A stretch of DNA of 38,895 nucleotides, from sequence record SRR31156797_12445. One strand, 5' to 3'. Positions within the stretch are counted from its first letter, which is position 1; every line of letters starts with the position of its first letter. Shown here piece after piece: positions 1,270 through 38,895 of the stretch. The notes under the pieces are model-generated. The model had not been told where the DNA came from. It saw only the letters and a program-made list of their open reading frames with translations, and did not search any database. Made by a program: the position numbers and the translations under genes.

Positions 1270-1300
1270 GTTTAGTCGCCTAGCCTCGTCCTGCTAGAAA

Positions 1301-2918: not shown

Positions 2919-3003
2919 AATTTTTCCTGTTGTTTTGATATATTATATGGGAATGGCAGGGGTACCCTGTTTGAGATAACAAAGCTTTTTATGCCTGGCA
3001 AGG

Positions 3004-9437: not shown

Positions 9438-10970
9438 TTAAATATCGAATTTGATTCCCTGTGCCAGTGGTAGAGTCTTGCCGTAGTTGATAGTGTTTGT
9501 TTGACGTCGCATGTAGGCCTTCCAAGCATCAGAGCCAGACTCACGGTCGCCGCCGGTTTCTTTTTCACCACCGAATGCACCGCCGATCTCAGCGCCGGAA
9601 GTACCTATGTTGACGTTGGCAAGCCCACAGTCAGAGCCTGCTGCAGAAAGGAACTCTTCAGCTTCTAATAGATTTTCTGTAAAAATGGCTGAGGAGAGTC
9701 CTTGAACGACGTCGTTTTGTAGTGCTAGCGCATTGCTAACCTCGCCTTTATATTTGATAAGGTATAGAATAGGGGCAAAGGTTTCCTCTTGGACTATCTG
9801 GTAGGAATTTTCCACTTCAGCAAGAGCTGGAACTACGTAACAGTTTGATTCGTAACCTTCACCTTCCAAGACTGAACCACCGTAAATTATCTTGCCGCCT
9901 TCCTCTTGAACTTTTTCGAGTGCGTTAAGGAAATCTTCTACTGCTCCTGTGTCGATCAAGGGGCCGACATGATTATTTTCATCAAGGGGATTTCCAATGT
10001 TCAAATTACCATAAGCCTTGACGAGAGTACTTTTAACCTTGTCGTAGATTGATTCATGGATAATCAGTCGTCTGGTTGAAGTGCAACGTTGTCCCGCTGT
10101 TCCAACAGCCCCGAACACGATGGCTGGTAAAGCCATTTTCATGTTGGCGTTTGTGGTGAGGATGATGGCGTTATTGCCTCCGAGCTCAAGAATTGATTTG
10201 CCGAATCGCTTGGCTATCACTTCAGCGCCGTGGCGACCGACTCGAGTGGAACCTGTGATTGATATAAGAGGCAGCTTTTTATCAGTGAGCATGCGTTCAC
10301 CAACAACGGAACCTCGACCGATAATCAAGCTAAATAATCCTTCGGGGAGGTCGTTTGCTTTTATGACGTCGGCAAGAATGTTTTGTACTGCGATAGCGCA
10401 GAGGGGAACTTTTGTTGAAGGTTTCCACAGGTTGGTATCTCCGCAGACGGTTGCAATCATAGCATTCCAGGACCATACAGCAACCGGGAAATTGAAAGCA
10501 GAAATTGTTCCAACTACACCTAAGGGGTGATACTGGTCGTACATGCGATGTTGTTCACGTTCAGAAGCCATGGTGTTGCCATAGAGCTGTCGAGATTGTC
10601 CTACCGCAAAATCGCAAATATCTATCATCTCCTGAACTTCGCCTTTACCTTCCTGTAAAGATTTTCCCATCTCGTAAGAGACAAGTTCTCCAAGAGCATC
10701 TTTATATTTTCTCAATTGGAGGCCAATTTGACGTACTATTTCACCCCGCTTGGGGGCTGGAACAAGGCGCCACTTTTTAAAAGCCTCATAGCTTTTAGAG
10801 ACAAGTTTTTCGTAATCAGTTTCCGATGCTAAATAAACACTAGCGATTTTTTTGCCATCCACTGGCGAAGTAACCTCAACTTCTCCCTGGTCGCAGGTCT
10901 CGTTCCATTCTAAACCGGTTGATGCGCCAAAATTTTTTTCCTTAATATTAAGCTGTTGTAAAAAATTCAT
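9438..10970 (-). CDS. amaB: ALDH family 7 aldehyde dehydrogenase, piperideine-6-carboxylate / aminoadipate-semialdehyde dehydrogenase-like (AmaB/Pcd)
   Basis: EGKGEVQEMIDICDFAVGQSRQLYG, SAFNFPVAVWSWNA, LELGGNNA, GTAGQRCT, SDCGLANVNIGTSGAEIGGAFGGEK, LPLAQGIKF, all ALDH7 hallmarks. Confidence 0.88.
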   Translation of the reverse strand: MNFLQQLNIKEKNFGASTGLEWNETCDQGEVEVTSPVDGKKIASVYLASETDYEKLVSKSYEAFKKWRLVPAPKRGEIVRQIGLQLRKYKDALGELVSYEMGKSLQEGKGEVQEMIDICDFAVGQSRQLYGNTMASEREQHRMYDQYHPLGVVGTISAFNFPVAVWSWNAMIATVCGDTNLWKPSTKVPLCAIAVQNILADVIKANDLPEGLFSLIIGRGSVVGERMLTDKKLPLISITGSTRVGRHGAEVIAKRFGKSILELGGNNAIILTTNANMKMALPAIVFGAVGTAGQRCTSTRRLIIHESIYDKVKSTLVKAYGNLNIGNPLDENNHVGPLIDTGAVEDFLNALEKVQEEGGKIIYGGSVLEGEGYESNCYVVPALAEVENSYQIVQEETFAPILYLIKYKGEVSNALALQNDVVQGLSSAIFTENLLEAEEFLSAAGSDCGLANVNIGTSGAEIGGAFGGEKETGGDRESGSDAWKAYMRRQTNTINYGKTLPLAQGIKFDI

Positions 10971-11131: not shown

Positions 11132-11269
11132 GCTTGATCGCCTGATGCAATATTGTTGTATTTGGTTTTGCTATTGCTTGTTTTGAAAAATCTTTTATTT
11201 TTAGTGTGTTGTATGCATTAATGTGAAATGCATACGACATGAAAAGCTATAATGAAGAGGAATGCAAAA

Positions 11270-16454: not shown

Positions 16455-16799
16455 GATCAGCTAGATTGTTTTATGCGCGGTTTTAAAAGGCGTAACCCAC
16501 ATCAACCTCAATTTTACCAGGCTGTTCACGTTTCTCAAGGCTGGTATACATCTACTGCCCCAGCAAGGCTGCCAATGCAGGGGGGGGGTATCTCTGGGCT
16601 TGAGATGACCCAGAAAGGCATGCGTTTTTCATGGTCACGAGAAGAACTTGAGCAGAGACTGCACACAATCATGGGGGATATCCACCAAAAATGTGTGACC
16701 TACGGTATGGAAAACAAGAGGGTGAACTATTGTAAGGGCGCAAATATAACCGGTTTTATCCGAGTTGCCGATACGCTTGTTGCCTGCGGGAACATATAG
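16455..16799 (+). pseudogene. gdhA: NADP-glutamate dehydrogenase remnant with large internal deletion
   Basis: N-terminal KRRNPHQPQFYQAV joined directly to C-terminal PSKAANAGG (other frame), SGLEMTQ...SWSREE, NYCKGANITGFIRVAD. Confidence 0.85.
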
Positions 16800-16923
16800 G
16801 GAATGTTTATTCCCCTGTACTCAAGGGCAGGGAAAATACGTTGAAAATCCTGTCGTTTTGTACGGGATATATTGGGTTGTGGGTGAGGTGATGGTGGCCA
16901 TCATATATTTTTGACTTAAATGG

Positions 16924-17364
16924 TCATGTTTGGCTTGGCCCAATCGGTGATAAGGATGAAGTTTCAGTTGTGTGCCTTTCCTGTATGGCTGAAGAACTTG
17001 CCTGCTGTTTCAGGTTTTCCTGCACTTGGCTCATCATCAATAGCCTAAGAGTATATTGTATAAAATCAGGTGGTTCGCAGGTATACAATATATAGTGCCC
17101 ATTAATGATCAAATGGGGCATTGAGCCTAGGCCAAAGGCTGTAACCTTTGGTTTTTCAATTTTTACAGTTGCCACTTGGTCTAGAGGGATACATGACGGG
17201 CTTGAGTGGCTTGTGTATATAGCTCTGGTGGTTATTAAACAACCGGAACTTCCGTTGTGCAGGGGAGAACTATCGTAGAAGAGAAGAGGTGTTTCGTTAT
17301 CAAGCATTTCATGGGCGAATCTTGTGCGAGCCTTTTCAATGTCTTGTGGTTTGAAATCACCCAT
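16924..17364 (-). CDS. Hypothetical protein, possibly the 3' remnant of a longer gene
   Basis: 146-aa ORF; the same frame continues upstream past an in-frame TAA (17398-17400) to the activase stop. Confidence 0.45.
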   Translation of the reverse strand: MGDFKPQDIEKARTRFAHEMLDNETPLLFYDSSPLHNGSSGCLITTRAIYTSHSSPSCIPLDQVATVKIEKPKVTAFGLGSMPHLIINGHYILYTCEPPDFIQYTLRLLMMSQVQENLKQQASSSAIQERHTTETSSLSPIGPSQT

Positions 17365-17451
17365 GACCCTTTTGCCCCGGAGTAGCCCCTTAAAAAATTA
17401 GGGTAGACGAGTGGCACTCTGTGCGGCATCATAGGTAATGGTTTCCAGAGG

Positions 17452-18372
17452 CTAATGAACCTCTTTGTTAATTAGATGTATTTTATAATTTTTTAATATT
17501 GTTAAAGCGTTCGCCATTTCCTCGGGTGTGGGTGAGGTAGTGTCTTTCATCATATATTTTCGTCCCAGTCGCTCATATTTGGCCTCACCTAGACGGTGGT
17601 AAGGAAGAAGCTCCAAGTGTGCTCCTGGTCTTTGTGACTGCAGAAATTGGCCTACTGCTTCAAGGTTTTGTCGCCCATCGTTAATGCCTGGTATTAACGG
17701 AACCCGAACCAGCAATTCTTGATCCATCTGCAGTAGGTTCGCAATATTCTTAAGAATCAACGAGTTGGACGCACCAGTGTATTCTTTATGCTGCTGGTCA
17801 TCCATAATTTTCAGGTCGCAAATGACAGTATCCACATAAGGAATAATTCGTTGAACTGTTTTTTCCGGAATATGGAGGCAGGTTTCAATGGTTGTATGAA
17901 CGTAGCTATCTTTACATATTTTGAGAAATGCGAGTGCAAAATCAGGCTGAGCAAGAGGTTCGCCGCCAGAAATAGTCACACCACCACCGGAACGATCCCA
18001 GAATGGCCGGTCCGTTGATACTTCAGCATACAGGTCTCTTGCTGAAATCGTTCGCCCTGTGAGTTCCAAGGCTCCACTTGGGCATGTTTCTACACAATTC
18101 CCACAAAGATCGCATAGCCTTCGGTCAATTGTATGTATGCCATCTGTCAGTTTGATTGCCTTCTGAGGACAGGCTTCAACGCACCTGCCGCATAGAATAC
18201 ATTCTTTTTTCAGATAGGTGAGCTCCTGGGAATTTTTCTGTGATTCAGGGTTTGCACACCACCTGCAGAGAATTGGACACCCTTTGAAAAATACTGTGGT
18301 ACGAATCCCTTCGCCATCATGGATGGCGTAGCGGTTAATATCAAATATATTTCCAAGGGTGTCCGGATTCAT
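17452..18372 (-). CDS. Glycyl-radical enzyme activating protein (radical SAM, with 2x[4Fe-4S] insertion)
   Basis: HDGEGIRTTVFFKGCPILCRWCANPES, CILCGRCVEACP, CDLCGNCVETCP, GGVTISGGEPL, LLPYHRLG; start overlaps GRE stop. Confidence 0.95.
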   Translation of the reverse strand: MNPDTLGNIFDINRYAIHDGEGIRTTVFFKGCPILCRWCANPESQKNSQELTYLKKECILCGRCVEACPQKAIKLTDGIHTIDRRLCDLCGNCVETCPSGALELTGRTISARDLYAEVSTDRPFWDRSGGGVTISGGEPLAQPDFALAFLKICKDSYVHTTIETCLHIPEKTVQRIIPYVDTVICDLKIMDDQQHKEYTGASNSLILKNIANLLQMDQELLVRVPLIPGINDGRQNLEAVGQFLQSQRPGAHLELLPYHRLGEAKYERLGRKYMMKDTTSPTPEEMANALTILKNYKIHLINKEVH

Positions 18373-20720
18373 TAGCAGACCTCGTGTGCAGTTCTTGAGA
18401 TTACTTCATCCTGAACATTTTTACTCAACATGGTAAAATAATCACTGTACCCGGCTACTCGAATCAGCAGTGAACGATAATCATCCGGCTTTTCCTGCGC
18501 AGCATGTAAGGTCTCTTTGGAGACAACATTAAACTGCATATGATGGCCACCTATGTCGAAGTAGGATCGGAGCATGGAGCTAAATTTCTTGAGATTCTCT
18601 TCTCCTTCCAAGGTTTTCGGGGTGAATTTTAAATTGAGCAGCGTACCCACTGTGGATACGTGGTCCAGTTTACCTATGGATTTAGCTACGGCAGTGGGGC
18701 CGGAAATGTCCTGCCCCTGTACCGGGGAGATCCCTTCAGCAATAGGCTCACCTGCAAAACGCCCATCTGCGGTTGCTGCTGTTGCTTCTCCAAAGGGCAG
18801 GTGGGAGGTTGTCGGAATAGGATTTGCCCCATAGGGGGTACCACGCTCGTTAGTGTATTTTTTGAGTAAACTTACCAGCATATTGACAAGTCTTGTGGCT
18901 TGATTGTCAACACTCTCCTGGTCGTTGCCAAGCTTGGGAGCTTTTTTCCAGAGCAGGCCACGCATGAGCTCGTGTCCCTCAAAATTGTCCTTCATACCCT
19001 GCACTATCTGGTTCATGGAGAAGGTCTTCTTATCGTATACAAAATGTTGAATTGCTGCAAAAGAGTCTGCAACAGTTCCTGTCCCTACTGCCGAAAGCAT
19101 TGGTTGAGAGTATCTCGATCCACCTTGATGGTAGTCCAGCCCAGTGGAAATACAGTCATCCATGACCAGCGAGGTGCAGAGTACTGGGTTCATTTCGGAA
19201 AAGACTTGTCTGGATTTGAGGTCATAACCATTTTTAAGGTCAACCATATGGCGAATCTGAATCTCGAAGCTTTTCCAGATATCTTCAAGTGTCTCAAATT
19301 GATCTGCAGATCCTGTCTGGGGACCCAACTGTTTTCCGTTGAGCATGTTAACCCCGTTGTTCAGGGCTAGTTCCAGGCATTTTGCCAAGTTTATATAGCC
19401 GGAGGATGCCATCTGGTCATTTCCCTGGCCTGATATTTCGCAGCATCCATTAATACCGCCACCCCTTGCGTCTTTGAGGCTCTTTCCTTTTTCTGCCAGA
19501 GAAAGGACGATCCCGTCAGCATTAAACATGGCTGGCATGCCAGTTCCTTTTCGTGCCAGTTCGCATGCTTTCAGTAAAAACTCCTGTGGTGTTTTTTGTA
19601 CTGATAAGGCAGGACAGTTGAGGTTGTGGGAGGAGGAGGTTTGATTGCGCTTCGATGCACATATATGAGACGTCGTTAACACCGCTGCTACCATCTGATT
19701 TGAGGCCGCCAACGTTGAGGTTTTGGAAATCAGCGTAAGTGTTACTAGCCCTGGCCGTACCTGCCTCCTTTACTACGGTCATCTCTGCAAATTTGACCCA
19801 CAGGCAGTTGAGTAGTTCTTGCGCTTGCTCTCTGTCGGTTGTCTTGTCGGCGATACTTTTTTCGAAAAATGGAAAAATGTACTGATCAAAACGTCCTGGC
19901 GAAAGAGCGTAGGCATTACTTTCAAGGTTGAGCATGAGATGCACAAACCAGAAAGATTGGAGTGCTTCATAGTAGTTTTCCGGTGGGTGTTCTGGTACCT
20001 GCCTGCAGTTTTCGGCAATCTGAAGAAGCTCGTTTTTGCGAACAGTATCAGTGCATTCTTTCGCAAGTCTCTCTGCTTCATCTGCGTGACGGTGAGCAAA
20101 GACGATGACAGCATCGATTACAATTAACAGCGATTCATAGAAGCATTTTTTCTGTTCATTTTCTTTTGGGGTAACCTCTAGTGCGGCTTCTACCCGCTCT
20201 CGTAAACCTTTAAAGCTCTCTTTTAAGACTGTCTCGTAATTTGCATTAAAATGTCCGATACTTCTGTTGAGGTAATAGTGAAAAAGGGCGCCTTCATCTG
20301 CCGCTTCCATGGCCTCTTTTTCGACATTTGGCAAAATATGATCGTAGAATGTACGACCTTTCCAGTAGGGTATTACTTCCTCTTTGACGAGTTTTTTATT
20401 TTCTTCTGAAATGTCAAAAGCTGTCTTGAAGCGTTGTGCCAGGGAGTCGACTTTTTTTTCAATCCATTCAACATTGAATTCGGGGTATAGAGGAGATCCC
20501 AGTGCAGTCGGCGTCTTGCAACCAACAATCAGTTCGTCATCTTTGATGAGTACTGTTGAATGGTGGAAAATTTTTTCCATAGCCCGCGCTTTCTTCTTTT
20601 CAGGCCTTTCATTTTCGTTTTCACGATAGGCCTCTGTTACCAGGAGGCTCTTTCTGCATACACTTCAGGAGTTGAATTGAAAATCTGTTGCTTTAGTCGT
20701 TCAAGGCGCGTTGTTAACAT
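18372..20720 (-). pseudogene. Glycyl radical enzyme, HypD-like dehydratase clade, two single-base frameshifts
   Basis: ATG at 20720 with GAGG RBS (MLTTRLERLKQQIF); shifts at ~20646 and in the T6 run 19592-19597; SPGRFDQ, SNTYADF, GCCE Cys loop, PTTSH, RVAGYS glycyl motif. Confidence 0.9.
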
Positions 20721-20931
20721 TTTTCCTCACTTTTAAATGTTCAGGCTGGAGTGGGCGAGATGTAACTATTCTTCCAGCCCATCTTGAACTCTTCTTCTCG
20801 ATCAAAGTCGGCTTTGTTTTGCTGAGCCTTTTATACGGGACTCGTTATTGTGTGCACCATTGCACATCCTTTTCTTTCAAACACAATAAGCGCACCCGAT
20901 TGATATGTGAAATGAATTGTTTTGATTTTAG

Positions 20932-21146: not shown

Positions 21147-21239
21147 GTTGTCAAGTAGAAGTTTTACTGATTCTGTTCAATTGTTTTTTGAACAAATACA
21201 AAAAAAATGTGTGTCGGTTGTGAGAAGGCAATATTCTAT

Positions 21240-21881
21240 ATGAAAATTGATATTTATAAAACAATTAAAGCGCGGATTTTATCCCTAGAGTATGAACCTG
21301 GGTGTATTTTAAGTGAAAAAAATTTGGCAAAAGAATTTGGTGTGAGCCGTACGCCTTTGCGAAATGTTCTTAACCAACTGCAGTCAGACCAGTTAATCCG
21401 TGTCATACCGCGCACCGGGGTACTAGTTGCAGAGATCCAATTTCAACAAATTATGAATACTTTTCAGGTGCGACTCGGGATTGAAGAAATGGTTGGTTCC
21501 CTCGCATCTGAAAATGCTACAGACGAGCATTGCAGCATGCTGGAGGAGTTACATACTCAATGCCGCTCATTGTTCGAGGTCAGGGATAAAACGCTTTTGA
21601 TGGCCATTGATAGGGAAATGAGAAAAATCCTTAATGACAGTACCAACAACCCGGTATTAAAGGATATCTCCGAATCTCTTTATGACCACACCGTCAGGTT
21701 GTGGTGTGTAGTCTTAGATAAGGGCGGGTGGGCGGAGGAGGTGCAGTCAGTTCTGGACGACATAGAAAAGACTGTTGGTGTTCTTAAAGGAGGGGAAAAT
21801 CAGCTCGGAAAGCTAAGACGTGAAATGCTTCTCCAGCATATTGAACGGATAAGGGATAAATTTTTAGGAACTGTACAGTAA
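21240..21881 (+). CDS. GntR family regulator (FCD-type)
   Basis: IYKTIKARILSLEYEPGCILSEKNLAKEFGVSRTPLR...PRTGVLV; divergent from the GRE. Confidence 0.93.
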   Translation: MKIDIYKTIKARILSLEYEPGCILSEKNLAKEFGVSRTPLRNVLNQLQSDQLIRVIPRTGVLVAEIQFQQIMNTFQVRLGIEEMVGSLASENATDEHCSMLEELHTQCRSLFEVRDKTLLMAIDREMRKILNDSTNNPVLKDISESLYDHTVRLWCVVLDKGGWAEEVQSVLDDIEKTVGVLKGGENQLGKLRREMLLQHIERIRDKFLGTVQ

Positions 21882-22498: not shown

Positions 22499-25400
22499 AT
22501 GAACAGATGCCCCAACCCCTCACGGAAACCTATCATGGAAAGATCCCCAGAAATATCGTCAAATAAGAGACAGTGGATTGAGATTACAGGCGCTAGCCAG
22601 AACAATCTTAAAAATATCTCTTTGAAAATTCCCAAAAAAAGTTTGACAGTTATTACCGGTATATCGGGGTCCGGAAAATCCTCTCTGGCTTTTGAGGTGA
22701 TGCATGGAGAGGGCAGGAGGAATTATTTCGGAAATCTCTCAGCTCATGCGAGAAAATATCTGGGTAAACTTGAAAAGCCCCGAGTGGAAAAAATTAGGGG
22801 ACTAAATCCAACCATTGCAATTTCTCAGGATCCACCGAGGGATAATCCACGCTCCACGGTGGGTACCATAACCGGTGTGTATGATAGTTTACGTCTCTTG
22901 TTTGCACGGGTGGGTAGGGGGGGCGGAGAAAATGTTGTTTTGACCCGGAGTATGTTTTCCTTTAACTCGCCTGAAGGGGCCTGCTCACAGTGTCGGGGAT
23001 TGGGAGTCGTTGACAGCGTAGATCCGGATTTGCTTATTGCAGATGAGAGTAAAACCATTCGGGAGGGGGCTTTTAAAATTACTAACCCCAAAGGGTATAT
23101 CATTTACTCTCAGGTGACCATAGATGCACTTGATCAAGTACTTCAAGCTCATGGGGCTAACGTTGATACACCTTGGCGGAAGTTGAGTCCCGCCCAGCAA
23201 GATGTCGTTCTCAATGGCAGCGATATCATTAAGATTCCCTATGGCAAGCATACCTTGGAGTCCCGGATGAAATGGTCGGGAATTACTGCCAAGCCTAGGG
23301 AAGAAGGGGTTTATAAGGGGATATTGCCGGTAATGAACGGAATTTTGAAACAGGATAGGAATCGAAATATACTCCGCTATGCCAAAACCATTCATTGTCC
23401 TGATTGCAGAGGAACTCGGTTGAAATCCGGTGTTCAAGCTGTCCATGTGCATGGTTACACAATTATAGATCTCTGCAACATGAGCCTGATGGAGCTTTCT
23501 GGCACCCTTGCGGAATTTACATTTCAAGGAATAGAGCAAGCCGTAGCGAGTGTGATAGTGGGGCAGGTCCAAAAACGCTTGGCAATGCTCTCCTCTTTGG
23601 GGCTCTCCTATCTCACATTGTCTAGACTTGCTGGGGGGCTTTCCGGAGGAGAGATGCAGCGCATTCGTCTGGCCAGGCAGGTTTTGTCGGGTTTGCGAAA
23701 CATTACCTATGTGCTTGATGAGCCAACTGCAGGGGTGCATCCTGAGAACTGCCTCCAGGTTACTAAGCTGTTGCGCAAGCTGGTGAGTTTAGACAATACA
23801 GTTGTTGCTGTGGCTCATGATGCCATCACCATGGGTAAAGCTCACTGGATAATTGAGATCGGGCCAGGAGCAGGTGAGGGCGGCGGTGAGGTGTTGTTTG
23901 CCGGGACCATGAAGGAGTTTTTTTCCTCCAGCCACCCAAGTCCTACAAGGGATTACCTGGAAGGGAAAGGAGGCTTGTCCCTTGAAGAATCTGGAGAAAC
24001 TGAACCACATAAGCCTATAAGTGTAGCAGGAGCAGCAATTAACAATCTGCAATCCATAAATGTACGTTTTTGCCGAAACAGGTTCAATGTGGTGACAGGG
24101 GTGTCTGGTGCAGGGAAGTCTAGTTTGGTGAATCAGACTCTGATTCCGCTACTGGCCGGAAATTACCAGCAACAACTCCATGCCAAAGGGACCCCTTCAC
24201 TAACAGGGGCAGCCTTCAAAAAAACAATAGTGGTAGATCGCAGGCCTATAGGGAAGACGGCTCGCAGCAATCCGGCAACATACACCGGCCTCTATGATCT
24301 CATTAGAGCTTTATACGCCGAACTTCCAGAGTCAAAAGAAAGGGGGTTTAACCGGGGAACTTTCTCTTTTAATGTCAAGGGCGGTTCCTGTAATACATGT
24401 CAAGGAGCTGGAACTATTGTAACAGGTATGCACTTTTTGGGAAATGTGTCACGGCCATGTGATAACTGCGGAGGGAAACGTTTTGCGCCGCCGGTGCTCG
24501 GGGTTACTTGGAAAGGGAAAAGCATTGCTGATGTCTTGGATCTTACGGTGGATGAGGCCTCTCAACTCTTCATGGGGAAAAAGAAAATTGACTATCACCT
24601 TTCTATGCTGGTTAATCTGGGCCTCGGATACCTTAAACTAGGGCAGCCGTCTGGTACGCTTTCTGGGGGGGAAGCTCAGAGGATTAGGCTGGCTCGTGAA
24701 CTGATTAAAGGAACGGCCCAAAACGTGCTTTGTATCCTGGAGGAACCTACAGTAGGGCTCCACTCCCACGATATCAAAAAACTCTTTCTACTTTTTGACC
24801 AACTTCTTGACAACGGTAATACCTTAATTCTGATTGAACACAACCAGGAGGTGATTCGCAGCGCTCACCATATTGTCGAGCTGGGCCCTGGAAGCGGGGC
24901 TGCTGGTGGAGAAGTTGTCTACCAAGGTGATCTCTCCGGGTTGTTAGGCTGCGCTCAATCTAAAACCAGTCGTATGCTGTTAGAAAAGAGGGTGCCTTCA
25001 TTAGGAGCGGAAATTAACCCAACTGGCCTGGTCGAAACCGCTCTTTACGGGGTAACCACCCACAACCTGAAATCGATAGATGTGATAATTCCAGACCAGG
25101 CATTGACGGTAATTGTGGGTAAATCAGGCAGTGGAAAAACGAGCTTGGCTTTCGATACCCTTTGCGCTGAGGCACAAAGTCGGTACATGGAAAGTTTCCC
25201 CGCCAAGGTAGTAACCTCTCGGTATTCTCAGGCAAGTTATCAGCAGGTTAAAGGGCTTTGCCCTGTGGTGGCCCTGGGGCAGTATGATCGGGTTCGGGAC
25301 CCAAGGTCTACTTTGGGGACAGTTAGCGGGATGTTGGATTTATTCCGGTTGATGTTTTCCAGATACGGCACCTGTGGAGAGGGGGCAAAACTCCCTAGCG

Positions 25401-27457
25401 CTGGTCATTTTTCATTCAATAATATTATCGGTGCTTGCAGTCACTGCAGCGGCCTGGGCACTACACTGACCGGATCTTTTGAGAGCCTTTTTGAAAGGAA
25501 GGATCTGCCAATGTCGCTCGAAGCATGTGGCAACAGGAAAGCCTTCAAACTCTATATGGATCCTGATGGCCGACACTTGGCCACCCTTCGAGTGGTTGGA
25601 AGGCAGCTGGGATTTGATTATGGGGTTCCGATCAAAGAGCTGTCTGCTGAGGCTTGTCAAGTAGCTCTTTTTGGAACCGGAGAGGTTGAATATGAGGTTA
25701 GCTGGAAATATAAGCGGGGTACTCGTAAAGGGAGACACGTTTTTAAAGGGCCTTGGCAAGGACTGGTGCCCCTTGTTCGGGATGAGTATCAGAGAAAGCA
25801 TGCTAGAGGCAAGGGAGAGGATCTCAGGGCCTTGCTTATTGAAAAGAAATGTTCGGTATGTGGGGGAGGTCGGCTAAAACCTGAGATACTTGCGGTGAAA
25901 TTTGGTGATATGAATCTTGCCCAATGGTTGTCGATGGATGTTCGGGAATCCTTGCGTCTTCTTGGGCAGGTTAAGTCTGGAGTCTATACCTCAGGGATCC
26001 CCAGAGCTTTTGATCTAGATCAGAATCAGCTTTTGGAGAGCCTCATCAGTAAGCTTTCCGTGATAGCTAAATTGGGGCTGGAATATCTTGCTCTAGACCG
26101 TAGCTGTACTAGTCTCTCAGGTGGGGAGATGCAACGAGTGCTGCTTGCCAACCTTGAAGGGGGAGGTCTCACCGGTGTTACCTACATATTAGACGAACCC
26201 AGCATCGGGCTCCATGGAGCAGATATTCAGGGACTCATCAGTTCTATCCATGAGCTCACGACCTTAGGCAATACAGTGGTTTGCGTAGAGCATAACCTGG
26301 AGATTATCAGGGCCGCTGATCATCTTATCGAGTTAGGACCAAGTGGGGGGGAGGCAGGGGGGAGAGTGATTGGCCAGGGACAGGTTGCTGATATTGCCGA
26401 TAGTCCAGATAGCCTTATTGGGAAATGGTTAAATAAACCGCTGCAGCTCCGTCAACCTTCTCCTATGGTGCCCAGTGACTCCGTGGGCGATGTGTCTTTT
26501 TTTGAGGCTGCCTGCCATAATCTCAAAAACATTTCCTTTCGTTTACAGAGAAACCGGCTCAACCTCATTACCGGTGTATCTGGTAGCGGCAAAACAACGT
26601 TGTTGCGGGAGGTGATTTATCCCAGTTTCGTGTCAGGTAGACCTGTAAATTGTAAATGGATTAAGGGGCTTTCAGAAAGAGTAAATGCCGTGTGGGTTGG
26701 TAGGGAGGGGCGCATAGGTAACGTTGCCAGTGCCTCTGTTACTTTTCTAGGACTGTTTGATTATATAAGGAAGGTCTTTGCCAATCTTCCTGTCTCCAAA
26801 TCCCGGTGTTTTAGCCCGTCACATTTTTCGTTTAATAACAGGTTGGGGCAATGTCCGGTTTGCAAGGGGGCCGGGGAGGAAAGAGTGAAACTGGACTTTT
26901 TAAGCGATGTCAGCAGTCCCTGTGAGAGCTGTGGTGGAAGCCGTTATAGGGACGAAATTCTGTCGGCCACTTACCAGGGTTTTTCCATCGATCAGGTGCT
27001 CAAGCTTACTTTTTCCGCTGCTGTTTCCCTGTTCGACGACTTTCCGAAGATCAGAGAGAAGTTAGACCTAGTCATTCGTCTGGGGCTCGGATATTTAACA
27101 TTAGGACAGGGGACTCATACGCTTTCCGGTGGTGAGGCTCAACGATTGATGTTGATTAGAGACATACTAGCTGGGGGCGGTGAAAATACTGTATACCTTT
27201 TTGACGAGCCCGGTAAGGGGTTGCACATGGAGGATTTGAAAAATCTGTACACTCTTTTCGAAATGCTGTTTGAGCGAGGCAGTACACTGGTTGTGATAGA
27301 TCATAACCCTCACCTTATTGCCAGGGCTGACTGGGTAATTGATCTGGGGCCTGGAGCAGGAGAGAAGGGGGGAGAACTTGTATATCAAGGGGGAGTGGCA
27401 GGATTGTTGGAGAGGAGCAGTTCAGTCACCGGTGCCTATATGAATGGATGGGCGTGA
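22499..27457 (+). CDS. uvrA: Double-length UvrA-like ABC ATPase (two fused UvrA units)
   Basis: Four Walker A motifs (GISGSGKS, GVSGAGKS, GKSGSGKT, GVSGSGKT), four LSGGE signatures, multiple CxxC zinc motifs, FSFN motifs; true start may be 22535. Confidence 0.92.
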   Translation: MNRCPNPSRKPIMERSPEISSNKRQWIEITGASQNNLKNISLKIPKKSLTVITGISGSGKSSLAFEVMHGEGRRNYFGNLSAHARKYLGKLEKPRVEKIRGLNPTIAISQDPPRDNPRSTVGTITGVYDSLRLLFARVGRGGGENVVLTRSMFSFNSPEGACSQCRGLGVVDSVDPDLLIADESKTIREGAFKITNPKGYIIYSQVTIDALDQVLQAHGANVDTPWRKLSPAQQDVVLNGSDIIKIPYGKHTLESRMKWSGITAKPREEGVYKGILPVMNGILKQDRNRNILRYAKTIHCPDCRGTRLKSGVQAVHVHGYTIIDLCNMSLMELSGTLAEFTFQGIEQAVASVIVGQVQKRLAMLSSLGLSYLTLSRLAGGLSGGEMQRIRLARQVLSGLRNITYVLDEPTAGVHPENCLQVTKLLRKLVSLDNTVVAVAHDAITMGKAHWIIEIGPGAGEGGGEVLFAGTMKEFFSSSHPSPTRDYLEGKGGLSLEESGETEPHKPISVAGAAINNLQSINVRFCRNRFNVVTGVSGAGKSSLVNQTLIPLLAGNYQQQLHAKGTPSLTGAAFKKTIVVDRRPIGKTARSNPATYTGLYDLIRALYAELPESKERGFNRGTFSFNVKGGSCNTCQGAGTIVTGMHFLGNVSRPCDNCGGKRFAPPVLGVTWKGKSIADVLDLTVDEASQLFMGKKKIDYHLSMLVNLGLGYLKLGQPSGTLSGGEAQRIRLARELIKGTAQNVLCILEEPTVGLHSHDIKKLFLLFDQLLDNGNTLILIEHNQEVIRSAHHIVELGPGSGAAGGEVVYQGDLSGLLGCAQSKTSRMLLEKRVPSLGAEINPTGLVETALYGVTTHNLKSIDVIIPDQALTVIVGKSGSGKTSLAFDTLCAEAQSRYMESFPAKVVTSRYSQASYQQVKGLCPVVALGQYDRVRDPRSTLGTVSGMLDLFRLMFSRYGTCGEGAKLPSAGHFSFNNIIGACSHCSGLGTTLTGSFESLFERKDLPMSLEACGNRKAFKLYMDPDGRHLATLRVVGRQLGFDYGVPIKELSAEACQVALFGTGEVEYEVSWKYKRGTRKGRHVFKGPWQGLVPLVRDEYQRKHARGKGEDLRALLIEKKCSVCGGGRLKPEILAVKFGDMNLAQWLSMDVRESLRLLGQVKSGVYTSGIPRAFDLDQNQLLESLISKLSVIAKLGLEYLALDRSCTSLSGGEMQRVLLANLEGGGLTGVTYILDEPSIGLHGADIQGLISSIHELTTLGNTVVCVEHNLEIIRAADHLIELGPSGGEAGGRVIGQGQVADIADSPDSLIGKWLNKPLQLRQPSPMVPSDSVGDVSFFEAACHNLKNISFRLQRNRLNLITGVSGSGKTTLLREVIYPSFVSGRPVNCKWIKGLSERVNAVWVGREGRIGNVASASVTFLGLFDYIRKVFANLPVSKSRCFSPSHFSFNNRLGQCPVCKGAGEERVKLDFLSDVSSPCESCGGSRYRDEILSATYQGFSIDQVLKLTFSAAVSLFDDFPKIREKLDLVIRLGLGYLTLGQGTHTLSGGEAQRLMLIRDILAGGGENTVYLFDEPGKGLHMEDLKNLYTLFEMLFERGSTLVVIDHNPHLIARADWVIDLGPGAGEKGGELVYQGGVAGLLERSSSVTGAYMNGWA

Positions 27458-29503: not shown

Positions 29504-30784
29504 CTAACAGCGGCGCTGCAGTGTATGATAGGCTCTGCCTCCAGCTTCAAAATAAAGGCCACGAGCGTGTCTGGTTGGAATGTTTTTTTGTTTTGTTAAT
29601 GGCAGGGGAATTGCTGCTGATGATTCTGTTTGTGCGTATTCTGCGAGGAGTTTGCCAAAAACTGTACCTGGACCAATCCCTCTACCGTTGAAGCTGGTCA
29701 CTGTAAACATATCATCGTCGAGAATATGAAAACCTGGAACGTTGTCGTTTGTCATCCTGATAACTCCGTCCCAATAATATTCCAACTCTATGTTTCCTAT
29801 CTGTGGGAACATCTTTTTTATAGAACGCAGGACCCACTTTTTATGGAGATTGTACGCTCCATTTTTTACTTGGCCAACACTTCCTACGATTAATCGCCCT
29901 GCTTCGTCAATAACATAAGATGAAAGCACCAAGGCCGTGTCCCATGCAGGTTGTTTTCCTGGAAGGATAGTTTCGCGAACTGCCTTCGGCAGTGGGGGGG
30001 TGGAGAACTGAAAATAATTAAATGGGATCATAGATTTCTTTTGATCTTTGAAACCGTACTCGGGATATCCTTGGGTGGCCAGGATCACCTTTTTGGCTTG
30101 AAGAGAACCTTTAGGTGTCTTTAAATGCCAGCTGCCGTTTTTTCTTTCGTATGAAGTTACAGGAGAGTTGATTTTGAGTTTAGCACCCGCCTTGGTTGCG
30201 GCTTCCGCAAGCCCATAAGCATATGACAAGGGTTGAAGTCGTCCTGCTCGTTTGTCCCACAGTGCCCCATGGTATGCTTTGCTGCCGATCATTGGGGCGG
30301 CTTCATCTTGGCTCAAAAGCGTGACAGGTGCATTGCGGGCTTGCCATTGCTTTTCTCGCATTTGAAGTGCTTTAAACCCGGCCGCTGAGTGTGCGCAGTG
30401 GAGTGTTCCTTCGCGGACAGCTTCACATTCAATGTTGTGTTTGTTGATTAGCTCAAAAACAAGATCCGGAGATTTTCCAAGTACATTAATGAGTTCTTCC
30501 CCATGTTGTGGGCCAATTGTTTTTACGACATCATCTGGAAATAGCCAGAGCCCTGCATTTATAAGCCCCACATTGCGTCCAGCGCCGCCAAAACCGATAT
30601 TTTTGGCTTCGAGTAAAGTAGCGTCAATCCCTGCCTCTGCAAGGTGGAGGGCTGCCGATAATCCAGTATAGCCTCCTCCGATTACAGCGATATCCGTGGT
30701 GTGTTCCCCCTCAATAGAAGATAGATCCGGGTGCGAAGGTGCGGTTACTGTCCAGAGGCCGTGGGTTTCAATCGAATTGTTCAT
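29504..30784 (-). CDS. amaA: FAD-dependent oxidoreductase (DAO family), L-pipecolate oxidase/dehydrogenase AmaA-like
   Basis: GGGYTGLS FAD motif; GRNVGLINAGLW..PDDV, GTLHCAH, DKRAG..QPLSY, AWDT..VLSS, FNGRGIGPGTVFG closely follow Pseudomonas AmaA as recalled. Confidence 0.75.
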   Translation of the reverse strand: MNNSIETHGLWTVTAPSHPDLSSIEGEHTTDIAVIGGGYTGLSAALHLAEAGIDATLLEAKNIGFGGAGRNVGLINAGLWLFPDDVVKTIGPQHGEELINVLGKSPDLVFELINKHNIECEAVREGTLHCAHSAAGFKALQMREKQWQARNAPVTLLSQDEAAPMIGSKAYHGALWDKRAGRLQPLSYAYGLAEAATKAGAKLKINSPVTSYERKNGSWHLKTPKGSLQAKKVILATQGYPEYGFKDQKKSMIPFNYFQFSTPPLPKAVRETILPGKQPAWDTALVLSSYVIDEAGRLIVGSVGQVKNGAYNLHKKWVLRSIKKMFPQIGNIELEYYWDGVIRMTNDNVPGFHILDDDMFTVTSFNGRGIGPGTVFGKLLAEYAQTESSAAIPLPLTKQKNIPTRHARGLYFEAGGRAYHTLQRRC

Positions 30785-30877: not shown

Positions 30878-31227
30878 AATATACCTACCGTATACTAGCG
30901 GTATTTCTGCTAGTCAAGCGTTTTGTTTTTGATTTGGAGTTATTTGAGGCCTATTCCAGGTAACCGGGAAAGAGCTGTTTATTTAATACATTACAATTCG
31001 AAAGAGTTAGGAGTTGTAAGAAGGTGATGAAGAATCCTGAAATAAATATTTCACATGAAGAGATTGAAACAGGGTTCTAGCCGTACTGAAGTCAGTAAAT
31101 CATAGTGGGTGAGATGGCCTAAGTTTGGAGGTATCGCAAAACAATAACAGTGAGAATTTTAGGTTGTATTTAATGGGTTTATTGGGATAGTATGAATCCT
31201 ATTCGACCCTAATGAAGAGGCTGTTTG

Positions 31228-33593: not shown

Positions 33594-35423
33594 ATGTTTG
33601 GATGGAGAGGAAAAATACTGAGAGTCAATCTCACAACTGGGTCACTGCAGGAAGAGGCTTTGGATCCTCAAGTTGCTAAAGACTATATAGGCGGCAGGGG
33701 TTTGGGGGTGTGGCTTTTAAATAAAGAATTGGATCCACAATGCGATCCTCTCTCCCCCGAGAACATCTTGGTCATGGCCACTGGGCCATTGACTGGTACG
33801 GGGGCTCCAACAGGTGCACGGTATATGGTGATGACAAAGTCACCGCTTACCGGCGGTATCACCTGCTCTAACTCAGGTGGAAAATTTCCCACTGAGCTCA
33901 AGCGCGCCGGGTTTGATATGTTGATTTTTGAAGGGTGTGCAAAAGGGCCTTCATATTTATGGATTGATAGGGGAAAGGCCGAGTTGCGTAGTGCCGCTCA
34001 TCTCTCAGGTCTTAGTGCTCACAAAACCACAGAGCGACTGGTGGCAGAAACAGATGAAAAGGCAAAGATAGCTTGCGTTGGACCTGCTGGAGAGAAAAAG
34101 GTGCTCTTTGCGTCCATTATGAATGATAAAGACCGCGCTGCGGGAAGATCAGGTGTTGGTGCTGTAATGGGATCAAAAAACCTTAAGGCGGTGGTGGTTC
34201 GAGGAGAAGAAAAAATTTCCTTGGCTGACCCGGACCATTTTAAGGCTTTTAACCGTGAGATTCTCAGTAATTTTAAAGAGGAAGCAAAAAAAACGCCAAT
34301 TGGACTCAGGATCAACGGGACTGCCGGTGTTGTCACGGCTACTCAAAATTTTGGGGTGCTTCCAACCAAGAATTGGCAGCAAGGAACTTTTGATGGTTGG
34401 AAGGCTATCGACGGTACCACTCTTACCAAAGACTATTTGGTTGCTAATTCCGCTTGCTTTGCCTGCCCCATTGGTTGTGGACGAAAAACGCGAGTAGCTG
34501 AAGGTCCGTTTTCTGGAGAAGGAGAGGGGCCGGAATATGAGACTATTTACGCCATGGGCTCAAATTGTATGATAGATAATCTCGCTGCCGTGTTGAAAGC
34601 TAACTACATCTGCAACGAAATGGGCATGGATACTATCACCATGGGAGCCACCATTGCCTGTGCGATGGAACTCGTAGATCGCGGTTATGTCACCGAAGAG
34701 GAGGTCGGTCGTCCACTCAAATGGGGTGATGCGGAGGCACTTGTAGAATTAACCCGTATGACCGGTAATTGTGAAGGCTTTGGTGCTAGACTGGCCGAAG
34801 GGAGCTATAGGCTGGCAGAAAGTTGTGGGCACCCAGAGCTTGCCATGGTTTCAAAAAAGCAGGAGTTCCCTGGTTATGAACCTCGTGGAGCCCAAGCCAT
34901 GGGGCTGGCATATGCCACAAGCCCAATTGGCGGCTCTCATATGCGCGGTGACCCTGCCTACTTTGAGCTTTTTGGTATCCCTAAGCCTGTGGATCGTCTT
35001 GAATGGAAGGGTAAAGCCAAGCCAACACAAGCTTTCCAGGATCATTCAGCTATAATTGATTCTGCAGGGTTGTGCATCTTTTTCACTGTCCGTAATTTGG
35101 TTGAAAAAGATCTTGATGTCGCTCCCACAGGCATCATGGAGTACATGAATGCTGCCACTGGGGCGGACTATACCCTTGAGGAATTGTCCGATGCCGGTCA
35201 GCGTATTATAAACGCTGAGAGGGTGTTTTTGTTAAATGCAGGGTTTACCAGGAAAGACGATTCGCTGCCTAAGAGGATGACGGAAGAGCCTATGCCTGAA
35301 GGACCGTCAAAAGGGCATGTTTGTCATCTTGAAGAGATGCTCGACGAGTATTACGAGGTCCGCGAGTGGAATCAGGATGGTGTCCCTAAGCCCGAAAAAC
35401 TGAAAAAGCTTGGTCTTGCTTGA
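33594..35423 (+). CDS. aor: Aldehyde:ferredoxin oxidoreductase (tungstopterin family)
   Basis: GKILRVNLT, YIGGRGLG, KSPLTG, RAAGRSGVGAVMGSKNLKA, CFACPIGC, GPEYET, GMDTI, DSAGLC; AGGAGG RBS. Confidence 0.95.
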   Translation: MFGWRGKILRVNLTTGSLQEEALDPQVAKDYIGGRGLGVWLLNKELDPQCDPLSPENILVMATGPLTGTGAPTGARYMVMTKSPLTGGITCSNSGGKFPTELKRAGFDMLIFEGCAKGPSYLWIDRGKAELRSAAHLSGLSAHKTTERLVAETDEKAKIACVGPAGEKKVLFASIMNDKDRAAGRSGVGAVMGSKNLKAVVVRGEEKISLADPDHFKAFNREILSNFKEEAKKTPIGLRINGTAGVVTATQNFGVLPTKNWQQGTFDGWKAIDGTTLTKDYLVANSACFACPIGCGRKTRVAEGPFSGEGEGPEYETIYAMGSNCMIDNLAAVLKANYICNEMGMDTITMGATIACAMELVDRGYVTEEEVGRPLKWGDAEALVELTRMTGNCEGFGARLAEGSYRLAESCGHPELAMVSKKQEFPGYEPRGAQAMGLAYATSPIGGSHMRGDPAYFELFGIPKPVDRLEWKGKAKPTQAFQDHSAIIDSAGLCIFFTVRNLVEKDLDVAPTGIMEYMNAATGADYTLEELSDAGQRIINAERVFLLNAGFTRKDDSLPKRMTEEPMPEGPSKGHVCHLEEMLDEYYEVREWNQDGVPKPEKLKKLGLA

Positions 35424-35435
35424 GATTGCTCATAA

Positions 35436-35669
35436 ATGTTGGTGGAAGTGAGGCTATATAGTGAGCTAAAGCGGTTCGCTCCCGAGGGAAAGGATGAATT
35501 TATTCTTGACCTTCCCTCGGGCGCGACTACTCAAGACCTGCTGGACACGTTGCATATATCAGATGGGGTACCGCGCACTATACTGAAAGATGGTATGTTT
35601 TGTGAAGAGAGCACACCACTAAAAGATGGGTGTACTATGGTCTTGTATACACCCTTGTGCGGTGGATGA
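35436..35669 (+). CDS. MoaD/ThiS family sulfur-carrier protein
   Basis: 77 aa with beta-grasp-like pattern ending in GG, directly after aor. Confidence 0.85.
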   Translation: MLVEVRLYSELKRFAPEGKDEFILDLPSGATTQDLLDTLHISDGVPRTILKDGMFCEESTPLKDGCTMVLYTPLCGG

Positions 35670-38590: not shown

Positions 38591-38811
38591 TTAACAATTA
38601 TTATACATTTTGATTATTTGTCCGGTTCCTTTGCCCATGGCACTTTTAACATACCCATTGACTACTTTTTTCATTGGAATGGGGTTATCCCCAGGGAAGT
38701 AGGCTTCATATTTATATACTGCATCTTCTACGAGTCCTGCGGAGACAACATTGATTCTTTGATTGTTTTCCAGTTCCATTGATACGGCTTTAACAAAACT
38801 GTGAATCCTGC
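38591..38811 (-). pseudogene. C-terminal fragment of a short-chain dehydrogenase
   Basis: IHSFVKAVSMEL...RINVVSAGLVED...YFPG..PIPMKKVVNGYVKS..G..TGQII; the upstream part to the window edge does not look like an intact SDR. Confidence 0.6.
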
Positions 38812-38895
38812 ATATTCCAGGTGAAACAAAAGATAAGAAAGGGCACCTGTCGGCCAAGATGAGAGTCAGTGCTGTCTCATAGTTTAGCCCCAGAA

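Follow-up and report, generated by a model that had tools for sequence, protein, structure and literature searches.

A frameshifted, probably decayed glycyl radical enzyme gene assigned to a sister clade of HypD, beside an intact activase gene

The analyzed window, i.e., the whole stretch of 38,895 nucleotides from sequence record SRR31156797_12445, carries a gene of a PFL-like glycyl radical enzyme (GRE). Instead of one unbroken frame of about 780-800 codons, the gene consists of three pieces (approximately 20646-20720, 19598-20646, and 18372-19597), separated by two 1-nt frameshifts (Table 1). The Pfam domain PF02901 (PFL-like) matches both large pieces and PF01228 (Gly_radical) matches the last one, and the C-terminal glycine-radical domain contains the RVxG motif (here RVAGY), as expected of the GRE superfamily. 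The read-through protein is 71-76% identical to intact 782-amino acid orthologues. Its best relative overall has 76% identity, a search among proteins of near length for a closer intact orthologue gave none above 73%, and a plasmid megablast of the GRE locus gave no match. An earlier note, made from the letters alone, had described a broken gene resembling trans-4-hydroxy-L-proline dehydratase (HypD), with two frameshifts at this position and on this strand; this observation is confirmed, and the same sequence was found in an independent Logan contig.

Table 1. Coordinates of the features distinguished within the window.
Feature	Coordinates	Strand	Details
P6C dehydrogenase-type ALDH7 (AmaB-like), intact	9438..10970	-	NF050084; Pfam Aldedh
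LysR gene, divergent from ALDH7	11252-12109		Pfam LysR
Second activase, C-terminal remnant	16833..16994	-	54 codons; tblastn with the L001 activase
GRE-activating radical SAM enzyme, intact	17452..18372	-	306 aa; Pfam Radical_SAM + Fer4
Probable GRE pseudogene, HypD-sister clade X	18372..20720	-	~782 codons, three reading-frame pieces
Frameshift 2	19592..19597	-	One A too many in an A6 run; between LSCLISTK and TPQEFLL
Frameshift 1	20646..20647	-	One base lost at the Ala25/Leu26 codon boundary; then a stop (AERASW-stop)
GntR/FCD regulator, divergent from GRE	21207..21881	+	Pfam GntR + FCD
AmaA-like FAD oxidoreductase (DAO family)	29504..30784	-	Pfam DAO; NF050086
Sigma-54 activator	31225-33327	opposite to DAO	Next gene upstream of DAO; Pfam Sigma54_activat
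Aldehyde:ferredoxin oxidoreductase (AOR)	33594..35423	+	Pfam AFOR_N + AFOR_C
Small, presumably MoaD/ThiS-like protein after AOR	35436..35666	+	37% identical to the 103-aa ORF downstream of the AOR in L031/L033
SDR-like protein fragment, cut by the window end	38591..38893	-	Homologues of 202 aa adjoin GRE in the closest orthologue loci

The activase encoded beside the GRE scores 356.8 with the TIGR02494 model (cut-off 174.35) and 345.6 with the HypD-activase model, i.e., under the cut-off of the latter (425), and it is 63% identical to the activase of the related locus L001. The remnant of a second activase showed 39% identity to residues 244-296 of the same L001 protein (tblastn, E 3e-7), and the ORF at 16924-17364 had no Pfam match even at E 0.01. 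An intact activase would be unexpected if the GRE system had been dead for long.

Several other genes of the window have counterparts in loci of GRE relatives. The GntR regulator is 39% identical to that of the GRE operon in L031/L033, and GntR-FCD genes adjoin the GRE also in L036, L061, L068, L074, L111, L113, L114, and L117. The AOR shares 75.8% identity over 608 aa with the AOR located downstream of the GRE, its activase, and a 172-aa protein (c17) in L031/L033, and it is followed by a small protein, presumably MoaD/ThiS-like in view of the C-terminal GG of its L031/L033 homologue. The SDR-like fragment is 68.8% identical over 96 aa to L001:1146-1754 and matches L002 and L069 too, with Pfam adh_short_C2 found on the L001 and L002 proteins.

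The earlier note had also listed a P6C-dehydrogenase-like ALDH7, a pipecolate-oxidase-like enzyme, and no P5C reductase gene. The first passes the L-piperidine-6-carboxylate dehydrogenase model NF050084 (798.9 versus a cut-off of 730), and no P5C reductase domain occurs among the scanned window ORFs of at least 100 aa. The second is AmaA-like, but it stays under the cut-off of the L-pipecolate oxidase AmaA model NF050086 (438.9 versus 600).

The window copy of the GRE gene is probably decayed and dead, a loss of function that we infer from several features of the locus. A Logan contig of 28,282 bases (k-mer depth 25.3) is identical to the window over positions 17400-20800 (no differences, no gaps). 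At the contig level, it represents an independent assembly and not an independent sample, since run X1, from which it derives, may be the source sample of the window. Run X2 gave no contig over the stretch and counts neither way. As both frameshifts are present in a read-derived contig, the GRE could not be made as one polypeptide in the host genome. Moreover, of the 181 positions with a conservation of at least 98% in the clade of its relatives, hereafter clade X, seven are altered in the protein (median 1), which is the second highest count among 144 sequences. The changes include the Cys loop, where GCVE is replaced by GCCE, a form found in the window copy only (1 of 147 clade X sequences). 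Other genes nearby are decayed as well: those of the second activase and of a glutamate dehydrogenase are reduced to remnants, and a transporter gene has an in-frame TGA.

It is very unlikely that the gene is functional, with the breaks being assembly errors or being passed by programmed frameshifting. The short homopolymer context at both breaks would suit such a reading, as would the unbroken activase and the freedom of the three GRE pieces from internal stop codons, but the same frameshifts occur in the independent read-derived contig (k-mer depth 25), and the surplus of conserved-site changes, the Cys loop among them, as well as the decay in the surroundings argue against it. Programmed frameshifting was considered and set aside on the sequence of the two sites: a -1 shift would be needed at site 1, where no X_XXY_YYZ slippery heptamer was seen when the sequence was read by eye, and a +1 shift at site 2, where the A_AAA_AAC heptamer favours -1, i.e., the wrong frame.

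In the phylogenetic tree (FastTree, 203 sequences, with 147 representing clade X and 24 the HypD clade) the window GRE falls outside the HypD clade and within clade X (support 0.998). Clade X is sister to a "GCVA" clade (0.975), and both together are sister to true HypD (0.991). No solved or reviewed GRE was found inside clade X; clustering with HypD or another characterized GRE class, which the earlier note had named as evidence against its proposal, was not observed. With the NCBIfam HypD equivalog NF043068 (cut-off 1100 bits) the two large window pieces gave 472.6 and 271.1 bits, and all ten intact relatives tested gave 760.5-820.9 bits, under the cut-off in every case. Furthermore, a true HypD and a clade X paralogue occur together in two genomes (1261 and 807 bits in G001; 1265 and 801 bits in G002). 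A search of the ESM Atlas with the intact orthologue P0004 returned generic PFL-like clusters and nothing more specific.

All motifs quoted in the earlier note were found in the window GRE, i.e., NRSIGHF, ASNTYADF, NGCCE (with a Tyr 16 residues past the first Cys), PTTSH, and RVAGY, together with NAYALSPGRFDQ, and the HypD motif strings given there agree with the alignment to 6vxc. In this alignment HypD residues Arg156, His160, Ser334, Asp339, Phe340, Tyr450, and Thr645 are kept, and Cys434 and Glu436 of the CXE motif are aligned and conserved. The Cys loop, GCCE in the window and GCVE in 145 of 147 clade X sequences, conforms to the GRE 1,2-eliminase motif as defined in PMC13450708. The HypD Asp preceding PGRxDQ was said to be replaced; it is indeed absent, but a gap opposite Asp278 in the 6vxc alignment indicates that it was deleted and not substituted. 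Asp278 is present in all 24 sequences of the true HypD clade and in none of the 147 of clade X. In HypD this residue is catalytic and strictly conserved, and the D278N variant is inactive (PMC7077986).

These results bear out the view of the earlier note that the protein is HypD-like yet not HypD: the carboxylate triad, His160, Asp339/Phe340, and CXE are retained, Asp278 is missing, and the sequence lies outside the HypD clade. It is extremely improbable that the enzyme is simply a trans-4-hydroxy-L-proline dehydratase, the name that some of its relatives have received from automatic annotation; HypD is the top solved-structure match and a few relatives are so named by JGI, but the scores under the equivalog cut-off, the loss of an aspartate essential in HypD, the separate clade, and the co-occurring true HypD of G001 and G002 contradict it. 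As judged from the tree and the residue pattern, the window GRE is a member of an uncharacterized sister group (clade X) of trans-4-hydroxy-L-proline dehydratase, and a substrate other than trans-4-hydroxy-L-proline is predicted for this group.

Among 40 loci inspected within 7 kb of the GRE, the neighbours included SDR (11/40), Pro_racemase (7/40), LarA-like (5/40), MttB (4/40), corrinoid (4/40), and OCD/mu-crystallin (4/40) proteins. An AOR gene follows the GRE in L031, L033, and G451, with the GRE-activase-c17-AOR arrangement of L031/L033 repeated in G451, and L031/L033 carry a P5C-reductase-like gene and three copies of MttB beside the GRE as well. The conserved c17 protein had no match in the ESM Atlas and none in Pfam even at E 0.01. 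Such neighbours point to imino-acid and aldehyde metabolism. The neighbourhoods are mixed, however, and for their LarA-like 2-hydroxyacid racemases and molybdenum hydroxylases a connection with an imino acid is not obvious. Second GRE paralogues present in the same operons (L027, L068) are closest to glycerol dehydratase and, as uncharacterized proteins themselves, offered no further clue.

The pipecolate/P6C neighbourhood in which the earlier note had placed the GRE turned out to be loose in the window and rare among the relatives. The P6C dehydrogenase gene lies 7.4 kb to one side of the GRE and the AmaA-like oxidase gene 8.8 kb to the other (18.5 kb between the two genes), each adjoins a regulator gene of its own, and unrelated genes and remnants intervene. 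The survey of orthologue loci for amaA and amaB, suggested in the same note, gave no conserved linkage, as a P6C-dehydrogenase-type ALDH and an AmaA-like DAO were each found in 1 of 58 related loci (2/58 loci together). In L067 a partial ALDH, with 286 bits across 172 positions of the model and 60% identity to the window ALDH, lies 2.5 kb from the clade X GRE, and in L074 a DAO 78% identical to that of the window is two genes away from the GRE; these two exceptions exceed our chance expectation. Neither gene occurs in any of the six loci of the window's subclade (L001, L002, L025, L026, L069, and the window's own operon). A P6C dehydrogenase was detected in three of seven genomes with a clade X GRE, on the GRE contig in none of the seven, and the search for AmaA-like proteins was negative in five clade X genomes, a weak result given that no positive control fired. 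AmaA-like and AmaB-like enzymes would constitute a self-sufficient module leading from pipecolate through P6C to 2-aminoadipate without any GRE, and the two nearby genes most likely serve such a separate pipecolate/lysine module.

The earlier note had proposed that HypD-type dehydration of 5-hydroxypipecolate would yield P6C, the substrate of the ALDH7, whose product would be 2-aminoadipate. Its statement that no GRE with this activity has been described agrees with our literature search, which found none, and this novelty is compatible with the proposal. The window does contain an above-cut-off P6C dehydrogenase and an AmaA-like DAO, the L067 and L074 genes lie close to clade X GREs, OCD/mu-crystallin, DAO, and aminotransferase neighbours fit lysine/pipecolate metabolism too, and molybdenum hydroxylase genes adjoin the GRE in L002, L027, and L028. 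Moreover, the clade X pocket is lined by smaller residues than that of HypD (Tyr for Trp277, no Asp278, and Ser/Ile/Gly for Pro/Phe/Asn) and, altered in this way, could accommodate a larger ring. Nevertheless, a hydroxypipecolate role appears to be an unlikely possibility, considering the distant and complete module, with a regulator gene adjoining each of its two genes, the linkage in 1/58 loci for each gene and in none of the window's subclade, and the P6C dehydrogenase found in 3/7 genomes and never on the GRE contig. In addition, the presence of proline-racemase-like and P5C-reductase-like genes in the neighbourhoods speaks for five-membered rings, the active-site signature of the L067 GRE is that of relatives with proline-type neighbours, and the window GRE itself is broken.

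With modest confidence, we lean towards a decayed GRE 1,2-eliminase gene of the HypD-sister clade X, located beside an intact activase gene, with a predicted Hyp-like substrate and with the pipecolate module of the window standing apart. By analogy with HypD, in intact members of the clade the activase would install a glycyl radical on the RVAGY loop, from which the radical would be handed on to the GCVE-loop Cys; the resulting thiyl radical would abstract a hydrogen from the carbon adjoining the C-OH group, and water would leave. The substrate would be a hydroxylated imino or amino acid that resembles Hyp and bears a carboxylate. The product would be a cyclic imine that equilibrates with an amino aldehyde, which neighbouring enzymes could oxidize (aldehyde:ferredoxin oxidoreductase or ALDH) or reduce (SDR or P5C-reductase-like).

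A rival reading, in which clade X dehydrates an N-methylated or other 4-hydroxyproline isomer not taken by HypD, HpyG, or HpzG (supplied, e.g., from hydroxyproline betaines via MttB-type demethylases), is tentative and rather doubtful. It would account for the MttB-family methyltransferases (4/40 loci, with three copies in L031/L033) and corrinoid proteins (4/40), found in the same clusters as proline-racemase-like and P5C-reductase-like genes, and the HpyG strand in the region of HypD position 278 is equal in length to that of clade X. However, clade X is nearer to HypD (665 bits) than to HpyG (527) or HpzG (474), MttB neighbours are absent from the window's own subclade, and the Asp278 argument is a single comparison. 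Hydroxyectoine, 5-hydroxylysine, and GABOB were also considered as substrates and set aside as chemistry-only ideas with no result in their favour; a literature search on hydroxyectoine found nothing relevant.

The window copy itself tells little of the host physiology beyond the probable loss of this function. The clade is of wider importance, as every new GRE substrate has revealed an unknown anaerobic pathway. Clade X is large and well separated, and it keeps the carboxylate-binding and leaving-group residues of HypD while the essential acid/base Asp278 is gone. At present, automatic pipelines name its members generically or as HypD, which creates a risk of HypD over-annotation in sediment and marine metagenomes. 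With its residue pattern and its coexistence with true HypD, clade X is a concrete object for substrate searches, and other hydroxyproline isomers, N-methylated forms, and hydroxypipecolates are among the candidates. Should 5-hydroxypipecolate be the substrate, anaerobes would have an oxygen-independent entry to the 2-aminoadipate route, and clade X would provide the first known case of a GRE with a piperidine-ring substrate.

With respect to known systems, Pseudomonas putida has amaA and amaB side by side. In the window, the ALDH passes the P6C dehydrogenase model (NF050084) and AmaA (NF050086) is the closest NCBIfam model to the DAO, but the DAO is sub-cut-off and the two genes are separated, each with a regulator gene of its own beside it. 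The B12-independent glycerol/propanediol dehydratases (PDB 1R9D, 5I2A) and the glycyl radical protein 9RCO share with clade X the strand length before PGRFDQ, with no extra Asp, and propanediol dehydratase is the best match of the N-terminal half of the window protein. Unlike clade X, they have Gly-His-Ser in place of [S/A/G]-Tyr-Ala and are devoid of the Ser/Asp/Phe and PTT motifs with which HypD binds an amino-acid carboxylate.

HpyG and HpzG are, like the predicted clade X enzymes, GRE C-O eliminases, acting on proline derivatives (reviewed in PMC13450708), and the MttB and corrinoid genes of some clade X loci would fit N-methylated substrates. As L079 had no solved-structure match at 1e-150, HpyG was mapped by a short-region search; it has no residue at HypD position 278, as in clade X, but Asp339 is not kept in it.

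The greatest likeness is to HypD (PDB 6VXC/6VXE; NF043068), which heads the solved-structure matches (the intact orthologue P0004 scores 665.5 bits). Clade X has in common with HypD the domains of the GRE fold, the glycine loop RVAGY, the Cys loop with CXE, Arg156, His160, Asp339/Phe340, and the carboxylate triad of Ser334, Tyr450, and Thr645, and each has its own dedicated activase, both from one subfamily. The differences are that clade X is only 38-39% identical to the true HypD of related genomes, Asp278 is deleted, Trp277 and Phe152 are both replaced by Tyr, PTTCH becomes PTT[T/A/S]H, the window has no P5C reductase, and in two genomes the clade X paralogue accompanies a true HypD.

Among solved structures, the best match of P0004, an intact orthologue of the window's glycyl radical enzyme (GRE), was HypD (trans-4-hydroxy-L-proline dehydratase; 6vxc) with 665.5 bits, followed by 9rco (619 bits), glycerol dehydratase (601 bits), propanediol dehydratase (579 bits), HpyG (8id1; 527 bits) and HpzG (8iof; 474 bits). 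Against the NCBI HypD equivalog, whose cut-off is 1100 bits, the window gene reached 472.6 and 271.1 bits with its two large pieces, and the intact relatives 760.5-820.9 bits (10 out of 10 tested, all below the cut-off); these ten passed the generic PFL2/glycerol dehydratase subfamily model only. The best 120 database relatives, 50-76% identical over the C-terminal piece, were aligned (MAFFT) with the window read-through (X at both breaks) and the full-length GREs from the fetched loci, leaving out partial GREs below 650 residues and exact duplicates. In the resulting tree of 203 sequences (FastTree, LG+gamma, rooted on the distant GRE of locus L080), 147 sequences formed one clade, hereafter clade X (support 0.998), within which the window GRE branched first in a subclade of 11 members (support 1.0). 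The sister of clade X was a 26-sequence clade with a GCVA Cys loop (support 0.975), and true HypD (24 sequences) was placed outside both (support 0.991). Identity to the window read-through was 71-76% within the subclade, 51-65% for the other compared members of clade X, 45-47% for the GCVA clade and 38-39% for true HypD. Since true HypD (1261 and 1265 bits, above the cut-off) is also encoded in both genomes that carry the closest orthologues, G001 (a Desulfosarcina MAG) and G002, clade X is a diverged paralogue rather than HypD that has drifted. Clade X was seldom met in the genome samples searched: matches of more than 50% identity occurred in 2 of 401 genomes of a class-level sample around G001, in which HypD-like matches of about 40% were found in many, and clade X matches in 5 of 401 genomes of an order-level sample around G295.

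Residues of HypD were mapped onto P0004 by alignment with 6vxc, allowing for the 20-residue tag offset of the chain, and the HypD motifs given in the earlier note agreed with this alignment. Arg156, His160, Ser334, Asp339, Phe340, Cys434, Glu436, Tyr450 and Thr645 are kept in P0004, Phe152 and Trp277 are each replaced by Tyr, and Asp278 falls in a gap. According to the available text of PMC7077986, which describes the roles of these residues, the HypD variants D278N, H160Q, E436Q, D339N, F340A and S334A are all inactive. Asp278 was present in 24 of 24 sequences of the HypD clade, in none of the 147 of clade X and in none of the 26 of the GCVA clade (203-sequence alignment). The signature common to the best 120 database relatives is Y-R-H, N-[S/A/G]-Y-A-[I/L]-[S/G] without Asp, S-D-F, GCVE, Y and PTT[T/A/N]H. 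The view that the enzyme is HypD-like but not HypD was borne out by the equivalog scores below the cut-off, the gap at Asp278 and the position of the window GRE outside the true HypD clade.

The frame pieces and Pfam matches confirmed the position and strand of the GRE gene and its activase, and all GRE motifs listed previously were found in the window sequence. Both breaks were placed by alignment with intact 782-aa relatives (see the table). The coded sequencing run X1 contains every sampled word of the GRE gene, and its Logan contig (28,282 bases, k-mer depth 25.3) equals the window over 17400-20800 with no differing letters and no gaps, a contig-level rather than raw-read agreement; as X1 may be the window's source sample, independence applies to the assembly but not to the sample. 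Of 181 positions with a conservation of at least 98%, the window GRE deviates from the consensus at 7 (median 1; the second highest among 144 near-full-length clade members); in the Cys loop Val has become Cys, and directly before the PTT motif Met has become Pro. The resulting GCCE loop occurs in only one of the 147 clade X sequences. Further signs of decay are the two gene remnants and the in-frame TGA of the symporter (see the table). Programmed frameshifting, by which the broken frame would still be read through, seems unlikely, because no slippery heptamer was seen at the first site, where a -1 shift would be needed, and the second site would need +1 on a motif that favours -1. Most likely, the window GRE is a genuine pseudogene, a non-functional copy adjoining a still-intact activase.

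Features of the window and of related loci (prefix L), with coordinates
Feature	Position	Strand	Remarks
Mobile-element genes	220-8383		adjoin ALDH gene; tyrosine integrase, Fic/DOC protein, type IV coupling protein of only 385 aa; several ORFs without family match
ALDH, P6C dehydrogenase type	9438-10970		P6C dehydrogenase equivalog 798.9, passes cut-off of 730
Glu/Leu/Phe/Val (glutamate) dehydrogenase, C-terminal remnant	16473-16799	+	just downstream of intact activase
Second GRE activase remnant	16833-16994	-	54 codons; just downstream of intact activase
GRE activase, intact	17452-18372	-	Pfam and family-model scoring
PFL-like GRE, three frame pieces	18372-20720	-	Pfam PFL-like on both large pieces, Gly_radical on last
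Frameshift 2	19592-19597	-	A6 run with one surplus A, between LSCLISTK and TPQEFLL
Frameshift 1	near 20646-20647	-	one base absent at Ala25/Leu26 codon boundary; stop soon after (AERASW*)
UvrA-like protein	22499-27457	+	1652 aa; several ABC ATPase modules and UvrA DNA-binding domains; between GntR gene and transporter
Sodium:neurotransmitter-family symporter	about 28029-29378	-	in-frame TGA at 29124-29126
FAD oxidoreductase (DAO), AmaA-like	29504-30784		438.9, below cut-off of 600
Aldehyde:ferredoxin oxidoreductase (AOR) homologue	33594-35423		75.8% identical to AOR of L031/L033 operon
202-aa SDR-like gene fragment	window end		68.8% identical
GRE of GCVA sister clade	L003:10001-12340		
c17 protein	L031:13560-14081		
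c17 protein	L111:7881-8399		
c17 protein	L113:13141-13656		
c17 protein	L116:12208-12798		
Second GRE in clade X operon	L027:11710-14154		
Second GRE in clade X operon	L068:11259-13616		
Molybdenum hydroxylase subunits	L002:1502-5134		

Homologues of the GRE partner genes are present in the window, scattered, and this fits a rearranged, decaying catabolic region. The small protein directly after the AOR has an L031 homologue ending in a C-terminal GG, and we take it to be MoaD-like. The remnants downstream of the activase may mark a second GRE-activase pair lost from this site. The symporter TGA is probably a nonsense mutation, as the frame runs on at both sides. Ordinary UvrA is much shorter than the UvrA-like protein encoded here.

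The earlier note placed the GRE in a pipecolate/piperideine-6-carboxylate (P6C) neighbourhood and proposed that it dehydrates 5-hydroxypipecolate to P6C, the substrate of the ALDH. In the window, the ALDH lies to one side of the GRE at a distance of 7.4 kb and the DAO to the other at 8.8 kb; the former is separated from the GRE by a LysR regulator, CoA-transferase A/B, an NhaC antiporter and gene remnants, the latter by a GntR regulator, the UvrA-like protein and the broken symporter. Each of the three window units has its own regulator gene (LysR, GntR and sigma-54 activator), and AmaA-like (L-pipecolate oxidase) and AmaB-like (P6C dehydrogenase) enzymes already constitute a complete module from pipecolate through P6C to 2-aminoadipate.

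The survey did not uphold such a neighbourhood for the orthologues. With the window ALDH and DAO as tblastn queries, two cases were found among 58 clade X loci (50 metagenomic, 2 genome contigs and 6 whole genomes; several near-duplicate, many short). On L067, a 3972-base contig whose organism is of the same kind as that of L055, there is a fragment of a P6C-dehydrogenase-type ALDH that shares 60% identity with the window ALDH (286 bits across 172 model positions); a different DAO and the GRE come after it. L074 (2646-base contig) carries a DAO 78% identical to that of the window, followed by a GntR gene and the GRE start. P6C dehydrogenase was encoded in three of the seven whole genomes with a clade X GRE (G001, G451 and G518), always off the GRE contig, and was not found in G002, G295, G473 and G495; the AmaA-like search, run without a positive control, gave no match in five of five genomes. 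The linkage is not conserved across clade X, and the subclade to which the window GRE belongs lacks it. Roughly estimated, without a computed test, two matches in 58 loci exceed the chance expectation for single-copy genes, so the genes may be linked in some lineages.

Within 7 kb of the GRE, 40 loci were surveyed (ORFs grouped by BLAST similarity; annotation from Pfam and NCBIfam). An activase was found in 24 loci, a classical SDR, mostly immediately upstream, in 11, a proline-racemase family protein nearest proline racemase (520.8 vs 556) in seven, LarA-like proteins and class I/II aminotransferases in five each, and MttB-family methyltransferases, corrinoid proteins, DAOs unlike the window's and OCD/mu-crystallin proteins in four each. 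The unit repeated in whole-genome loci comprises a divergent GntR-FCD gene, the GRE, the activase, sometimes an SDR, and the 172-aa c17; in G451 it continues with AOR, 2-oxoacid:ferredoxin oxidoreductase and an aminotransferase. A P5C-reductase-like gene is also present in L031 and L033, and a 202-aa SDR-like gene adjoins the GRE in the closest subclade (L001, L002, L026 and L069). Overall, these neighbours fit a substrate that is a hydroxylated imino or amino acid, whose dehydration would yield a cyclic imine or an amino aldehyde for subsequent oxidation or reduction. Proline-type rings and N-methylated derivatives are somewhat favoured by the neighbours, which do not decide ring size.

The conserved c17 protein (about 172 aa), a partner of the clade X GREs, follows the GRE-activase pair in six loci. 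It consists of two similar halves, with a Trp-His-rich motif in each, and matched nothing in Pfam or the Atlas. In L027, L028, L029, L030, L036 and L068 (the last with two activases), the clade X operon also encodes a second GRE, of another type and 33-38% identical to P0004; those of L027 and L068, the two compared with solved structures, are nearest glycerol dehydratase. Subunits of xanthine-dehydrogenase-family molybdenum hydroxylases flank the GRE in three loci (L002, and downstream of the GREs in L027 and L028), which might hint at N-heterocycle catabolism.

In the sister clade (loci L003-L022 and L083-L089; Acidobacteriota and Desulfobacterales MAGs), GCVA, once GCVT, replaces the CXE motif, and these 26 GREs therefore lack the conserved eliminase Glu, which the review PMC13450708, in its available text, calls conserved across all GRE eliminases; the Ser/Asp-or-Glu/Phe, Tyr and PTT[S/A]H residues are kept.

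A full-text search gave no literature pairing "glycyl radical enzyme" with "hydroxypipecol", and in PMC12899673, which matched glycyl radical enzyme and "pipecol", HypD appears in the reference list only. Pipecolate, piperideine and hydroxylysine are not mentioned in the available text of PMC13450708 (2026). 5-Hydroxypipecolate is one among several candidate substrates and a rather improbable one, and the interest attaches to clade X rather than to the window locus. What stands of the earlier assignment is that the enzyme is HypD-like and has no assigned specificity. The same available text of PMC13450708 counts GD, PD, HpfG, HypD, HpyG, HpzG, CutC, IslA/IseG and HpsG as GRE eliminases, with HplG, YbiW and PflD grouped as isomerases.
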